A stretch of DNA of 10,907 nucleotides from a virus (Duplodnaviria; Heunggongvirae; Uroviricota; Caudoviricetes). Shown here piece after piece: positions 7,006 to 10,907 of this stretch. Made by a program: the position numbers and the translations under genes. Each line of letters begins with the position of its first letter. Position 1 is the stretch's first letter. The notes beneath the pieces were generated by a model. The model made no database searches and had not been told where the DNA came from. It was given only the letters and a program-made list of their open reading frames with translations. Where the stretch lies: positions 1 through 10,907 of IMG/VR virus record IMGVR_UViG_2606217174_000001, one strand, 5' to 3'.

Positions 7006-7953
7006 TTACAGATAATCCGCGACAACCAGCTCCAGCTTGCCCTTCATCTCGTTAGAGACTGTGGCGTTACCGTCCGCGAACAGCTCGCGCTCCAGCAGCT
7101 GCACCGCCTGTTTTTCCAGCGAGGTGGGGACAACAATATGGGTGGGTTTGATGCCGAGTTTGCGGCCACCGTCAGCCTTAAAGTCACGCATGGCTGACCA
7201 GCCGTGCCACAGCGCATCCAGCGTCAGCGGTGACTGCATCATGTAGGCCATCTGCCAGAAGCCGTAGCCCACATTGCGACGGGCGGAAGCACCGAACACA
7301 AACTCGTTATCAGTAAACGCACGGCCTTCATCGACTTTTGTCTGGGCAACCAGTTCGGCCTTGCGGCGATCCTGATAAATCAGCGGTTTTACCGCGCGGG
7401 AGCAGTCAAGCAGATACCAGGCCGGGCCGCTGTAATCCGCCTGTGCACCGACAGAGCCGGTTTTTGCCACAAACATATTGCTGACCATCTGTGCATCACC
7501 GGAGCCATCCACTTTGGGGTAAACAGGGTGTTCGGTATCAAAGAAGTTCTGGCCGTCATAGCAGGCCGCATTCAGACCATCACGCAGTGCAGCAAAGACC
7601 AGTTCATCCGGTTGTGCCGCAGCGGCACGACCCATTTCCTGGAATAACGGGGAGTAGATGCCGAGATTGTCGTCTTCAAAGTCATCGCGGCTAATGGCAA
7701 CGGTGCCTTCAAAGGTTTTGTTCACGATGGCGTAGCCATAGGCTTTCATCTTCTCGATGACGCGGGAGCCGATCCACTCACGGAACTGCGGGAACTGCCC
7801 CAGCCAGCCGTAGGTGTTGGATTTCGAGGTGGACGGCACGGTCATCGCAATTTTCTGGTACTGCGACGGAGCCATGGACATCCCGGCCTGAAAATCAGAA
7901 CGGTAGCCCGTCATCAGGGCGGTGATCATCGCCGGTGTAATCGGGGTAGGCAT
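7006..7953 (-). CDS. T: major head (capsid) subunit, Mu gp34/T-like, 315 aa
   Basis: The translation (MPTPITPAMITALMTGYRSDFQAGMSMAPSQYQKIAMTVP...) resembles Mu-family major head proteins as I recall them. The start overlaps the stop of the protease/scaffold gene (TAATG at 7953). Size matches Mu T (~305 aa). Confidence 0.85.
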   Translation of the reverse strand: MPTPITPAMITALMTGYRSDFQAGMSMAPSQYQKIAMTVPSTSKSNTYGWLGQFPQFREWIGSRVIEKMKAYGYAIVNKTFEGTVAISRDDFEDDNLGIYSPLFQEMGRAAAAQPDELVFAALRDGLNAACYDGQNFFDTEHPVYPKVDGSGDAQMVSNMFVAKTGSVGAQADYSGPAWYLLDCSRAVKPLIYQDRRKAELVAQTKVDEGRAFTDNEFVFGASARRNVGYGFWQMAYMMQSPLTLDALWHGWSAMRDFKADGGRKLGIKPTHIVVPTSLEKQAVQLLERELFADGNATVSNEMKGKLELVVADYL

Positions 7954-8531
7954 TATTGCATTTCCTCTTTCATTTTCAGGAACTCGGCTTCGGTTTTACC
8001 CAACAGACGTGCGGCGGCGATATCTTCAGCCGACAGCACAGCGGTGGCGGTCTTTTTATCCGGCACGGTTACGGTGTCGGTCTGAAGAGTGGTCAGAGCC
8101 GCAACCGGCTGGCGGGCGTCAAGCTGTGCAGAAAGTGCCGCGACGCCAATCTGTTGTCCGAGTCCTTCCATGTATCCGCGTTCGCTTTTGAAAATGCGTC
8201 CTTCGGACTCGGCCTTATCCAGCAACTGCTCCAGCGTGGTGCTGCCGTGTTGTGCCGACAGCGCGGCATATTCGGTACGCAGGGCGTTATACGTCTCAAC
8301 GGGCACATATTTCGTCAGATCAATAGTGCCGCCAGTTGGTGTGCCTTTTGCGGTTTCCAGTTCTGCCGACAGGCTGGCAACCTGCGTTTTCAGGGTGTCG
8401 TGCGCATCCGCACGGGTTTTGATCCCGGTAAGGGCAGACAGCGCCGCCGTGCCCAGTTCCGGTGTAAATTCGTCACCGTCAGCCACGGTCAGACCGAGCG
8501 CCGTCAGCAACTGGCGTAATTGCTCATTCAT
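7953..8531 (-). CDS. candidate nested in-frame scaffold protein (Mu Z-like) from an internal start within the I gene, about 192 aa
   Basis: In-frame ATG (A at 8531; protein ...SPMNEQLRQLL) is preceded by AGGAG (complement of 8541-8545) with a 9-nt spacer. It falls at the boundary between the globular N-terminal domain and the coiled-coil C-terminal domain. Confidence 0.4.
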   Translation of the reverse strand: MNEQLRQLLTALGLTVADGDEFTPELGTAALSALTGIKTRADAHDTLKTQVASLSAELETAKGTPTGGTIDLTKYVPVETYNALRTEYAALSAQHGSTTLEQLLDKAESEGRIFKSERGYMEGLGQQIGVAALSAQLDARQPVAALTTLQTDTVTVPDKKTATAVLSAEDIAAARLLGKTEAEFLKMKEEMQ

Positions 8532-9071
8532 GGGGGATTGCTCCTGAGAAGGGGAAACGACATAGAGATCATCAGCACTGAGTGCCGCGACAGGGTTCAT
8601 ACCCGTAATACCCGGATCATTCGTCAGGGAAGCCATGCGCAACAGGTAGGGTTCCCCGGTGTCAGCGAAATAATGCATATATGCAGACAGATAGGCATAT
8701 TCACGGTCATCAATATGTTTTTGTGCCTGTGGTGTCCATTCAGGTTTAATGAAAATCCCCTGACCCTCACGCCAGCGGAAGTTTTCCGGTGAGGCCATGA
8801 CAATAGCCTTGAATCCGTTTTTCTGCGCATTCACGGAGTGATGGTCATAATCAATCAGTAACGGCTGATGCAGGGCGGAAAGCCCGGCTTTCATCCGGTT
8901 ACAGGCGGATTCGTTAATCAGCCAGCCTTCAGTCGGTTTTTCCGGGCGACCGTCACGGGCCTTTACCCGACCGGCTGGCATGATCTGACACCAGTCACCG
9001 TCCCCGTCTGCGGACAGGCTGATGGCATTCAGAATGGCATAAGCAAGTTTGGGCGTGTTTTTCGTCTTCAT
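7953..9071 (-). CDS. I: head maturation protease / scaffold protein (Mu gp32/I-like), 372 aa
   Basis: The N-terminal half is a globular domain (…LIDYDHHSVNAQKNGFKAIVMASPENFRW…). The C-terminal half is Ala/Leu/Thr/Gln-rich and predicted coiled-coil, typical of a scaffold. It sits directly upstream of the major head gene, as Mu I/Z does. Confidence 0.8.
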   Translation of the reverse strand: MKTKNTPKLAYAILNAISLSADGDGDWCQIMPAGRVKARDGRPEKPTEGWLINESACNRMKAGLSALHQPLLIDYDHHSVNAQKNGFKAIVMASPENFRWREGQGIFIKPEWTPQAQKHIDDREYAYLSAYMHYFADTGEPYLLRMASLTNDPGITGMNPVAALSADDLYVVSPSQEQSPMNEQLRQLLTALGLTVADGDEFTPELGTAALSALTGIKTRADAHDTLKTQVASLSAELETAKGTPTGGTIDLTKYVPVETYNALRTEYAALSAQHGSTTLEQLLDKAESEGRIFKSERGYMEGLGQQIGVAALSAQLDARQPVAALTTLQTDTVTVPDKKTATAVLSAEDIAAARLLGKTEAEFLKMKEEMQ

Positions 9072-9248
9072 TCCGGCAGCATAAGCCGGTGTTTTTCGGG
9101 GCCGGTTTTGCGGGACTTCAGAAAGTGCTGACAGGGGAAAAATGAGAAAGGCGCTTCACGCAGATTTTAAAGCCCGTTAAATACAGGTTAGAAAATCACG
9201 ACACGCGCCTGAAGAGGGTAAGGTAATGCGTTTGTATACCTTAAACCA
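9072..9248 (-). promoter_or_regulatory. G-I intergenic region; candidate activator-dependent late promoter (analogue of Mu P_I) with an AT-rich stem-loop spanning the G stop codon
   Basis: Largest non-coding gap in the operon (177 bp) and lower GC than the flanking genes. A -10-like TAAAAT (complement of 9164-9169) has no good -35. A direct repeat TTACCTTACC is present. An interrupted inverted repeat GTAATGGTTT...AAACGCATTAC lies at 9223-9252. In Mu a late promoter sits upstream of I. Confidence 0.35.
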
Positions 9249-9722
9249 TTACGGCGTTTCTGTGGCCTTTTTAAAGCGTTTTCTGATTTCGTCCATGATC
9301 TCCTGTTCTGCCACCTGATCAAAGCCCATATACGGACGTGCGCCAATGGCCGCCGGTCCCGGTGGCATACCAGGCAGGCCACCCCACTGATGAATGGCCG
9401 CATAAGGTTCATTTGATCCAATCAGCGCCCAGGTATCGCCATAATCCGTGGTCAGGCGGCGGGCCAGATCGCCGTTCAGCGTCAGGATTTTGCCGGGCGT
9501 GTATCCCTTACGGGTACGCCACTTGCGGTAAGGATCTGACCAGTCATGCCAGCGTTCGCCGTCCGGCTCTTTTTCCTGTTCAAACGCCATTTCTGACGAT
9601 GACAGAAGACTCTCCGCCACACTGCGGGCCAGGTCTTTTCCGCCGCCCACAAACTGAAGCCGGGCAAACACTCGCTGGAGACGCGTAACGTCAACAACGA
9701 CAGTTGCATCAATGGATGACAT
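9249..9722 (-). CDS. G: virion morphogenesis protein (Mu gp31/G-like), 157 aa
   Basis: ORF between the F-like and I-like genes. GGAGG RBS lies 4 nt upstream of the ATG at 9722. Size matches Mu G (~156 aa). Confidence 0.7.
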   Translation of the reverse strand: MSSIDATVVVDVTRLQRVFARLQFVGGGKDLARSVAESLLSSSEMAFEQEKEPDGERWHDWSDPYRKWRTRKGYTPGKILTLNGDLARRLTTDYGDTWALIGSNEPYAAIHQWGGLPGMPPGPAAIGARPYMGFDQVAEQEIMDEIRKRFKKATETP

Positions 9723-9759
9723 ATTGCCTCCGCATAAAGGATGAATATAAAATAAACAG

Positions 9760-9842
9760 GCGGTCAGTGTACGCTTAACTGGTAAAGTCGGTGCCTGCCT
9801 CCGGGTGGATCATGTATGCGGGTTCGCCCCCCGCCACTGACC
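9760..9842 (-). other. structured F-G intergenic element: 9-bp long-range inverted repeat enclosing an inner GC hairpin, followed on the transcript by a U-rich tract
   Basis: Plus-strand cggtcagtg (9760-9768) pairs with cactgaccg (9834-9842). The inner stem gcggg (9817-9821) pairs with cccgc (9829-9833). The minus-strand transcript then reads UGUUUAUUUUAUAUUC before the G RBS. Confidence 0.35.
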
Positions 9843-9843
9843 G

Positions 9844-10907
9844 TTAATCAATTTGTCCTTCCAGCACCTCAAGCATTCCGCCCCGGATATCCGATTTCAG
9901 CTTATCCATATTGATAACCCGGTAAGCATTCACAATCACATCCAGTTTGTCGGGCTGACGTTTCAGACTGTACGGTGCATTAATGGCAATCTGCACACTG
10001 CCATCCTGATTTTCCACGATATACATCAGATTTTTGTGCCGTTTGTCCCACAGCACCGCTTTTGGCTTTGCCAGCATTGCCGGTAAGCGCCCGAAGTCCT
10101 CTGGCATCAGGGCGATGCCGTCATTCTGATGTTTCACACTGTCTGCATGGAGCACATTTTTACCGCTCATCGCCAGCAGGCGGGCCGGTGGCGTTCCCGT
10201 CCGGCTTTCCACTGCCTGCGCAATGCTTTCAGTCATAAAGCCCAGCGTGCGGATATCGTTACCACCTCGCCGGGTCTGCATGATGTTTTTTGCCCAGATG
10301 CGGAACGCCAGCTGCCGCTCCGGGCTGTTGTTCATCTCCTGAACCACCATTTCCCGTAACGCCGGGCTTTTCACCTCGATCAGTTTGCGGATCAGCGCCT
10401 GGTCTGTGCCGAACGCTGCCGAGCCGGGGTTATATGACCAGCCCACATCCGGTGTCATGGTTCTGGTGCCATCTGAATATGTGGTCACCGGCATTTCTCT
10501 GACTTCTCCGGTCTGTTTATCCACGCCAGCCTCAACATTGCGGGTGGAGAGATGATCCTCACCGGATGAAACGGATAACCCCATTGCATCCAGACGAGCC
10601 TGAGACAATGGCCGCACACGGCAGCGGCAGTTCCAGCCATTAGGTGGGTAGTGTGTTTTCCAGAACGGATCGTCATAGCGGAATACCAGACCGTTAAGGG
10701 CGGAATGCGACGGGCGGGTACGGCTGTCCATGACCGCCACATACTGCCAGAACGGATGCGTGTCCGTGTTGTTCATCATCTGCGTGTAACGCCCGGCATT
10801 GTAAGCCACACGGGTGTTCACGTTGTAAATCAGCGCCAGACGACGGGGACTGCCCTGTTGCACTTCTTCCGCGTTACCGTCGCTGTCCACCACAATCTGC
10901 TTTCCCC
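9844..10907 (-). CDS. F: head morphogenesis protein (Mu gp30/F-like; SPP1 gp7-type domain), C-terminal ~354 aa; 5' end lies beyond the right window edge
   Basis: The track ORF 9844..10893 begins at a GTG, but the frame stays open to position 10907 (…GKQIVVDSDGN…). The translation (…YNAGRYTQMMNNTDTHPFWQYVAVMDSRTRPSHSALNGLVFRYDDPFW…PNGWNCRCRV) resembles the F-like head morphogenesis family as I recall it. Confidence 0.8.
   Translation of the reverse strand, partial: GKQIVVDSDGNAEEVQQGSPRRLALIYNVNTRVAYNAGRYTQMMNNTDTHPFWQYVAVMDSRTRPSHSALNGLVFRYDDPFWKTHYPPNGWNCRCRVRPLSQARLDAMGLSVSSGEDHLSTRNVEAGVDKQTGEVREMPVTTYSDGTRTMTPDVGWSYNPGSAAFGTDQALIRKLIEVKSPALREMVVQEMNNSPERQLAFRIWAKNIMQTRRGGNDIRTLGFMTESIAQAVESRTGTPPARLLAMSGKNVLHADSVKHQNDGIALMPEDFGRLPAMLAKPKAVLWDKRHKNLMYIVENQDGSVQIAINAPYSLKRQPDKLDVIVNAYRVINMDKLKSDIRGGMLEVLEGQID

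Follow-up and report, generated by a model that had tools for sequence, protein, structure and literature searches.

The synthesis of a protease and a scaffold from a single frame that has two translation starts, which sets the protease-to-scaffold ratio, is textbook knowledge in the cases of Mu and lambda and holds in outline for herpesviruses. In lambda, translation of the scaffold Nu3 begins within the protease gene C, at an in-frame start codon in its 3' portion, upstream of the major capsid gene; the C protease is of the ClpP/S49 type. The herpesvirus pair UL26 (protease-scaffold) and UL26.5 (scaffold) is also counted among the closest known systems, and herpesvirus prohead proteases, which have the assemblin-type fold, cut themselves free. 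Mu, with D108 and SfMu beside it, provides the closest known I/Z systems, and Mu Z (also called p20) is annotated as "scaffolding protein Z" with a start site internal to gene I (GenBank AF083977, Mu_32/Mu_33), in agreement with an earlier note on this DNA, made from the sequence alone, which had stated that I and Z are read from the same frame with an internal start for Z. Nested scaffolds are annotated in BcepMu (gp32/gp33) and KS10 (gp28/gp29) and are treated as common among phages (PMC2628397), and the Pseudomonas PaMx73/D3112 group also has a nested scaffold, whose internal start in PaMx73 is a GTG (Val177) (PMC4378225). According to these published annotations, the internal start in BcepMu, KS10, and the PaMx73/D3112 group is in frame, follows a Shine-Dalgarno (SD) sequence, and lies at the same relative position as in the locus described below, although these sequences are more distant, with ~33% similarity to Mu reported. 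A paper on JBD30 lists scaffold and protease as two distinct genes and gives no detail on them, and the protease-scaffold fusions of a CBASS preprint are T1-like, not Mu. In the literature searched, the primary Mu papers lying outside its reach, no experimental account of Mu Z or of cleavage of the portal was found.

The window analyzed here is a stretch of 10,907 nucleotides (IMG/VR record IMGVR_UViG_2606217174_000001, positions 1 to 10,907), in which a Mu-like E. coli prophage carries a full-length gene I homologue of 372 amino acids. The open reading frame (ORF) matched PF10123 (Mu-like_Pro) with E = 5.9e-81 and a score of 273 bits (cut-off 25.2), with the match spanning profile positions 1-330 of 330 and ORF residues 28-366. 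PHROG 328 (head maturation protease) matched both halves of the protein, which shares 52% identity with Mu I; these matches, with the gene order given below, establish its homology to Mu gpI. NCBIfam held no model for the full-length protein or for its Z part, and a profile search of PDB sequences returned only noise. The head module, encoded entirely on the minus strand, has the order F (PF04233), G (PF05069), I, T (PF10124), FluMu_N, Gp36, Gp37, and sheath, which places the I homologue in the Mu-type position between G (virion morphogenesis) and the major head subunit gene T (PF10124 match, E = 4e-119). The order F-G-I-T and the overlap of the I/Z stop with the T start are common to Mu and this prophage. 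Membership in the lambda C/Nu3 family was considered and rejected, as Pfam gave only PF10123 and the predicted fold is of the assemblin/gp21 type; the lambda system follows the same logic but is non-homologous. The features of the locus are as follows.

7953..9071, minus strand (ORF 9071..7953): gene I homologue, a protease and scaffold fusion of 372 aa and 40.4 kDa (ORF list, Pfam, PHROG, and identity with Mu I)
7951..7955, minus strand: TAATG overlap of the I/Z stop codon (7955-7953) and the ATG of T (7953-7951), with one base in common (sequence and ORF list)
8598..9014, minus strand: predicted N-terminal protease domain, residues ~20-158, confident alpha/beta (pLDDT 85-95)
8532..8594, minus strand: predicted variable disordered linker, residues 160-180 (pLDDT <50 at 160-179, about 40)
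8541..8545, minus strand: internal SD sequence AGGAG, 9 nt before the Z start (sequence)
8529..8531, minus strand: internal in-frame ATG (Met181), predicted start of a Z-type scaffold, aligned with the Mu Z start
7953..8531, minus strand: predicted coding sequence of the nested Z-type scaffold, 192 aa plus stop, 20.4 kDa, pI 4.8, mostly helical

The earlier note had placed an AGGAG at 8541-8545, a 9-nt spacer, and an in-frame ATG at 8531, and both coordinates and frame were confirmed, with the spacer covering 8540-8532 and (9071-8531)/3 = 180. The duplex between the internal SD and the anti-SD had an energy of -6.6 kcal/mol. Met181 aligned residue for residue with the Mu Z start (QENKP-MNETLRKLL in Mu and QEQSP-MNEQLRQLL here), and AGGAG, a 9-nt spacer, and ATG are found in both phages, with nested products of 183 aa in Mu and 192 aa here. 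Nucleotide identity to Mu was only ~70%, over part of the gene only, and the linker and N-terminus differ. Taken alone, the SD and ATG of this single sequence are not significant and do not go beyond chance: 9.6% of codon-order shuffles of the gene gave at least 1 AGGAG or GGAGG 5-10 nt before an in-frame ATG, and some SD core preceded 10 of 184 internal in-frame ATG/GTG codons in the genes of the window. The significance of the site comes from its conservation across homologues, not from single-sequence statistics.

We compared 153 homologues, along with a subset of 78 representatives (<80% identical) that reached down to ~27-30% identity and included beta-proteobacterial contigs and 1 Firmicutes-labelled contig. 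The Met181 column held ATG or GTG in 143 of the 153 homologues (127 ATG and 16 GTG), and among the representatives a start codon was present within 4 codons of the site in 76/78 and a GGAG/GAGG core 4-12 nt upstream of it in 75/78, counts that do not represent independent events because the homologues are phylogenetically related by descent. Non-conservation of the SD and ATG at the boundary, the outcome that the earlier note had set against its own proposal, is strongly contradicted by these counts. Start and SD occurred together at the exact alignment column in 89% of the representatives, against a background of 4.5% for the remaining in-frame ATG/GTG codons and 4.8% over the full set of codon positions, and no second conserved internal start was identified elsewhere in the gene, with every other alignment column at 6% or less. 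Among homologues, the SD core was encoded as QE, KE, TE, PE, HEG, NED, HGD, TGA, or QGE, in all three codon phases and at spacings of 5-12 nt, and the hexapeptides upstream of the internal start were all different (76/76 representatives); therefore, the constraint acts on nucleotides and not on the protein. Information content around the site peaked at -12 to -8. Only methionine and GTG-encoded valine interchanged at the start column, where Val codons were GTG in 14/14 cases among representatives versus 42% GTG usage elsewhere in these genes, and the GTG variants are paralleled by Val177 of PaMx73. The flanks were G-poor and A/C-rich, with a second codon that was mostly AAx in the representatives. 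The alignment to the Mu Z start and the conserved SD and start codon give comparative support to the earlier proposal of a scaffold of ~192 aa made from the internal start.

Signals at the level of the RNA and at the upstream start of full-length I were located as follows.

8521..8561, minus strand: low-structure RNA zone surrounding the internal start (folding of 40-nt windows in 76 representatives)
9069..9071, minus strand: start codon of full-length I, without SD
9073..9089, minus strand: inverted repeat or hairpin CCGGC-ttatgct-GCCGG, separated from the I start by 1 nt

Across the family, RNA folding had its minimum centred on the internal start, with a mean folding energy in 40-nt windows of ~-4 kcal/mol from -30 to 0 compared with -8 to -11 kcal/mol elsewhere in the gene across the same 76 representatives. 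The prophage's own 121 nt around the site had no significant structure (z = +0.32), and its SD and AUG were unpaired in the centroid. Of 73 representatives, 70 combined an I start lacking an SD with a strong Z start (Wilcoxon p = 5e-13). The loop of the hairpin at the I start holds a -10-like hexamer, TATGCT (9083-9078), and the hairpin itself was called from per-sequence folds compared with shuffles; RNAalifold on the ungapped alignment of these hairpins gave no consensus structure because loop lengths vary between lineages. A sigma-70 scan upstream of I detected no full promoter, and none is expected, as activator-dependent late promoters are without a -35 element. The late-promoter feature annotated in Mu stops 12 nt short of the I ATG, whereas in this prophage the I ATG is abutted by the hairpin with its -10-like hexamer. 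The hairpin was also considered as a plus-strand terminator-like site, but the adjacent T-run was not conserved in homologues, and the resemblance was treated as chance.

The domain boundary was read from an AlphaFold2 model of the I-like protein, which predicts a T4-gp21/assemblin-like prohead protease fold for the N-terminal domain, with His77 and Ser129, the candidate catalytic residues, invariant in 44 homologues. The model places Met181 at the end of the disordered linker between the protease domain and the helical half, whose helices begin at residue 183. The boundary at the ATG, as proposed earlier, was thus recovered, but as the end of a linker and not as an abrupt junction. Similarly, the description of the C-terminal half as rich in Ala, Leu, and Gln held for Ala (14.6%) and Leu (13.5%), but this mostly helical half is otherwise rich in Thr (13.0%) and Glu (8.9%), with Gln at 5.7%. 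This prophage copy has lost AAGW, a nearly invariant motif of the protease domain, which also sets it apart from Mu; the prophage may be defective, and initiation at the internal site may never occur in this host. A search for relatives carrying protease and scaffold as 2 genes split at the boundary found no clean split; all that it returned were relatives whose C-terminal region is shorter and different. The linker contains the first AALSA sequence (residues 162-166), 15 residues before Met181, and its coding DNA also contains the internal SD. Motifs of the AAL(S/K)A type recur through the scaffold half five to six times and occur once in the C-terminal region or linker of the portal of Mu and relatives, a pattern that could suit a protease recognition site.

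On the sequence evidence as a whole, this locus is very probably the Mu I/Z arrangement, with one reading frame and two translation starts. The SD-less ATG at 9071 would yield a small amount of full-length I, composed of an assemblin/gp21-type prohead protease, a flexible linker, and a scaffold domain by which the protease would enter the procapsid. The AGGAG at 8545-8541 with the ATG at 8531, a canonical strong and unstructured site, would direct the synthesis of more of the 192-aa scaffold alone, the putative Z homologue. Owing to the TAATG overlap of the I/Z stop and the T start, ribosomes that finish Z could feed the translation of T by translational coupling.

A broader reading is put forward tentatively, and we consider it somewhat less probable than its negation: the internal start may belong to a hard-wired dosage scheme, shared across the family, that is undescribed as a whole. 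First, the I start would be deliberately SD-less in nearly all Mu-like phages and abutted by a lineage-variable hairpin, with a -10-like hexamer in the loop exactly 6 nt before the ATG, so that the protease-scaffold might be translated either on a leaderless late mRNA or through a start that is masked. Second, the internal SD would be the main ribosome entry site of the head operon and would feed the capsid gene through TAATG. Third, AAL(S/K)A would be a recognition code of the protease, present once in the linker, five to six times in the scaffold, and once in the C-terminal linker of the portal, which would mirror the assemblin release and maturation sites of herpesviruses.

Proteolysis could generate a short product on its own, if full-length I cut itself in the linker (e.g., at AALSA 162-166) and the internal SD and ATG were unused. 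This is suggested by an AAL(S/K)A-type motif lying in the disordered linker so close to Met181, by its recurrence in the scaffold half and the portal, and by the self-release known for this protease fold in herpesviruses, but it leaves unexplained why a GGAG/GAGG core is kept at SD spacing in varying codon phases, why the column is exclusively ATG or GTG, and why there is a folding minimum and an SD-less I start; as the sole source, proteolysis is very improbable. The two processes are not exclusive, and cleavage probably takes place in addition to internal initiation. Just as improbable is a translational pause, in which the SD-like sequence would buy folding time for the protease domain and the methionine would be kept for protein reasons. 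Slowing of elongation by SD-like sequences within genes has been proposed, although this is disputed, and the motif falls exactly at the modelled domain boundary. However, pausing would not require a start codon at a fixed spacing, while in 76/78 representatives an ATG or GTG is retained 4-12 nt after the core; moreover, the exclusive use of GTG for valine, the A-rich second codon, and the unstructured RNA are signatures of initiation, and the Mu annotation gives the homologous site as a start. A chance SD-like pentamer before an ordinary internal methionine, as the shuffles and the ten other internal ATG/GTG codons with weak SD cores might suggest, is effectively refuted by the homologue comparison, with 89% at a single column against ~5% background, no other column above 6%, and exact positional homology to Mu Z.

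The nested scaffold of this prophage is real but ordinary, an instance of the already published Mu I/Z arrangement, and in principle it adds no new biology. The closest RefSeq relatives annotate only a "phage protease," and the nested scaffold gene is missed by automatic annotation; therefore, the head modules of Mu-like prophages appear scaffold-less. An annotation rule follows from the comparison, by which an ATG or GTG after GGAG/GAGG at the linker end of a PF10123 protein denotes the start of a nested scaffold. For the PF10123 family, the SD-less and possibly leaderless I start offers a small testable lead on stoichiometry, and the AAL(S/K)A motif common to scaffold and portal offers another on protease specificity.

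The window, which is the entire NCBI contig JNMV01000070.1 (assembly GCA_000700645.1), carries all its long ORFs on the minus strand, where they form a Mu-type late module, and it shares ~95% identity with Mu-like prophages of complete Escherichia coli genomes, in which the sole annotation of the I gene is "phage protease." The genes and the sites within I are as follows:

F, minus strand, cut by the contig end (PF04233)
G, minus strand, after F (PF05069)
9071..7953, minus strand, I, the 372-aa protease-scaffold ORF, between G and T
8545-8541, minus strand, Shine-Dalgarno (SD) sequence AGGAG, from the sequence
8540-8532, minus strand, spacer of nine bases, from the sequence
8531-8529, minus strand, internal ATG, Met181 of I, in frame
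7955-7951, minus strand, TAATG, I/Z stop over the T start, from the sequence and ORF list
T, minus strand, major head subunit, after I (PF10124)
FluMu_N, Gp36, Gp37, sheath, tube, and tape measure, minus strand, in this order after T

The minus-strand sequence at the internal site is tctcAGGAGcaatcccccATGaatgag, and an earlier note had placed its SD, spacer, and ATG at the right coordinates throughout. As 9071 - 8531 = 540 = 3 x 180, the internal ATG is in frame and is Met181, giving a predicted nested product (Z) of 192 aa, 20.4 kDa, and pI 4.8. The I protein matched the whole Pfam Mu-like_Pro profile (E = 6e-81) and shared 52% identity with Mu gpI. Mu gene I is annotated in GenBank AF083977 as capsid maturation protease and contains, in frame, [quoted passage not shown] with a ribosome-binding site for Z that is five bases long and nine bases upstream; I/Z is annotated likewise in D108 and SfMu. 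The Mu sequence at the Z start, caacAGGAGaacaaacccATGaatgaa, has a geometry identical to that of the window's internal start, and the protein alignment sets Mu ...QQENKP-MNETLRKLL over window ...SQEQSP-MNEQLRQLL, so that the window site is homologous in position to the start annotated for Mu Z. The Mu I/Z-type arrangement proposed in the earlier note is supported by the profile match and the position of Met181.

The internal SD/ATG of a single sequence does not by itself exceed chance: 9.6% of codon-order shuffles of the gene gave at least 1 AGGAG or GGAGG 5-10 nt before an in-frame ATG, and of 184 ATG/GTG codons internal to the twelve genes of the window, 10 followed a four-base SD core of some kind. 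The case for the internal start therefore has to come from comparison. Folding of 121 nt of window sequence around the site gave no significant structure, and in the centroid structure neither SD nor AUG is paired. We took 160 loci encoding I relatives from genomes and viral contigs, together with three annotated phages, and after extraction of the reading frames built an alignment of 153. The Met181 column held ATG in 127 and GTG in 16 homologues, and most of the remainder had an ATG two codons off with CAGGAG before it. Among representatives less than 80% identical (n = 78), 76 had ATG or GTG within 4 codons of this column, and 75 had a core GGAG, GAGG, or AGGA 4-12 nt upstream, where the duplex with the anti-SD averaged -7.2 kcal/mol. 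The background of start plus SD in the same genes was 4.8% over all codon positions and 4.5% at other in-frame ATG/GTG codons. Scored column by column, Met181 reached 0.89 and the next best column 0.06; SD and ATG are kept at the domain boundary, as the earlier note had proposed to check, and conservation, as read from these alignments, excludes chance as their origin.

The linker upstream of Met181 varies more than any other part of the protein, with hexapeptides different in 76 of 76 cases, and the SD core is spelled by QE, KE, TE, PE, HEG, NED, HGD, TGA, QGE, and other residues, in all three codon phases and at spacings of 5, 6, 7, 8, 9, 11, or 12 nt. Information content has maxima at -12 to -8 and over the start codon; the flanking positions are poor in G and rich in A/C, and the codon after the start is mostly AAx. 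The Met181 column holds Met or Val, and Val is encoded by GTG in 14/14 representatives (elsewhere in these genes, GTG makes up 42% of Val codons). Mean folding energy in 40-nt windows goes from ~-9 to ~-4 kcal/mol between -30 and 0 and is at -10 again by +30. By these comparisons, the constraint at the internal site acts on nucleotides, and the SD core, start codon, flanks, and low folding are the signatures of a translation initiation region. Proteolysis of the linker could also yield a Z-sized fragment and probably occurs, but it leaves these nucleotide-level signals unexplained. An elongation pause site at the SD-like sequence needs no start codon, and such signatures are not expected for it or for a conserved methionine. 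On sequence evidence, the window site is the I/Z arrangement of Mu.

An AlphaFold2 model of I, built with 43 sequences (mean pLDDT 74.6), had a confident alpha/beta domain at residues ~20-158, low confidence at residues 160-179, and helices from residue 183 through to the end; His77 and Ser129 were invariant in the homologue alignment. The domain boundary that the earlier note saw at the internal ATG is correct, with the refinement that Met181 ends a disordered linker of ~20 residues; the C-terminal half, described there as Ala/Leu/Gln-rich, is rich in Ala/Leu/Thr/Glu and not specifically in Gln.

Several local differences among I relatives were also observed. Against the 96%-identical homologue of E. 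coli JE86-ST05, a compact patch (~8800-8775, minus strand, I residues 91-99) changes IAAGWVKPENIEW to IVMA--SPENFRW in the window, with a 6-nt deletion in otherwise identical DNA. It removes the AAGW motif, near-invariant in the family, and may have impaired this prophage's protease or, alternatively, reflect a short recombination patch. The first 26 codons of I (8994-9071) diverge strongly from an otherwise near-identical E. coli homologue (locus L164, 530-620), with MKTKNTPKLA-----YAILNAISLSADGDGDW in the window versus MKTENHPKDANRPSGLAVLSA-SLTASGDG-W, which points to mosaic exchange at the gene's 5' end. Six comparison loci (L064, L065, L074, L075, L077, and L082) keep the protease domain but have a C-terminal region that is much shorter or unrelated, and in several of them repeated ...LS(A/P)EE...C...G(L/V)... 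units replace the long helical scaffold, which may be organized or encoded differently in these lineages.

The window's I start is without an SD (dG -1.7 kcal/mol), as is that of 70 of 73 representatives, and across the 73 the best-SD candidate I start averaged -2.6 kcal/mol, near background. For 70 of these 73 representatives, the internal start was the stronger of the two (Wilcoxon p = 5e-13). A weak I start and a strong Z start in one frame would yield little protease-scaffold fusion and much scaffold, a design that this gap in strength fits. A GAGG lies 10 nt upstream of the T start, within the I/Z coding sequence, and given the TAATG overlap, ribosomes ending on Z may reinitiate on the capsid gene T; overlap and GAGG together suggest that synthesis of scaffold and capsid protein is translationally coupled.

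The I start carries a further element:

9089-9073, minus strand, hairpin CCGGC-ttatgct-GCCGG, directly before the I ATG
9083-9078, minus strand, -10-like hexamer TATGCT in the hairpin loop
9071-9069, minus strand, I start codon, without SD

Of 75 representatives, 56 had a hairpin (4 bp or longer) that ended no more than 3 nt from the I start codon, with homologous positions in L086, L094, L096, L011, and other comparison loci and stems varying by lineage (CCCCC/GGGGG, GCCGCC/GGCGGC, GCGCA/TGCGC); the region had a mean MFE of -9.6 kcal/mol versus -4.9 for shuffles. The loop hexamers are -10-like (TATGCT, GACAAT, CACACT, TAATCT, CATCAT) and are separated from the I ATG by exactly 6 nt. With the A of this ATG as reference, A(-11) and T(-7) occurred together in 37/75 and in at most 11 at any other offset. 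With this geometry, transcription would begin at the AUG itself, which points to a late mRNA without leader or else to masking of the I start; the element may act as DNA (candidate promoter) or as RNA (start masking). The annotated late-promoter feature of Mu ends 12 nt before the I ATG. A terminator-like score of the hairpin on the plus strand was set aside, as the T-run is not conserved in homologues.

We identified six copies of an AALSA-type motif, [AVGST][AVS]L[ST]A, in the window I protein, at residues 162-166, 209-213, 232-236, 269-273, 311-315, and 344-348 (within 7953-8590, minus strand), and a seventh, looser copy, AALTT, outside the pattern at ~324-328. Mu I has the motif six times and the Mu portal H once (residue 427 of 512; locus L166, 2055-3593); the remaining window proteins lack it, as do Mu E, F, G, T, gp35, and J. 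In the scaffold half, most conserved columns, the best-conserved included, belong to AAL(S/K)A copies. In portal homologues (loci L167-L246), the single motif is kept at 83-108 residues from the C-terminal end, in a stretch that is otherwise variable and full of gaps, and in Aeromonas-type phages the scaffolds have AALKA and the portal likewise has AALKA/AALRA. Maturation of Mu includes portal trimming. This distribution would fit AAL(S/K)A as a candidate recognition or cleavage site of the prohead protease, shared by scaffold and portal, and the last copy, which lies ~25 residues short of the scaffold's C-terminal end, would be similar to the maturation site of herpesviruses.

Conservation of the I/Z arrangement is already published: in Pseudomonas Mu-like phages, a GTG (Val177) preceded by an SD is reported in the corresponding place (PMC4378225), and nested scaffolds are annotated in KS10 and BcepMu and called common in phages (PMC2628397). 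Lambda C/Nu3 works alike but is not homologous to the window I/Z, and herpesvirus UL26/UL26.5 is a parallel at the fold level. The herpesvirus short form, UL26.5, has its own promoter and not an internal ribosome-binding site. The internal SD and ATG are a known Mu I/Z feature, correctly recognized in a relative without a Z annotation.
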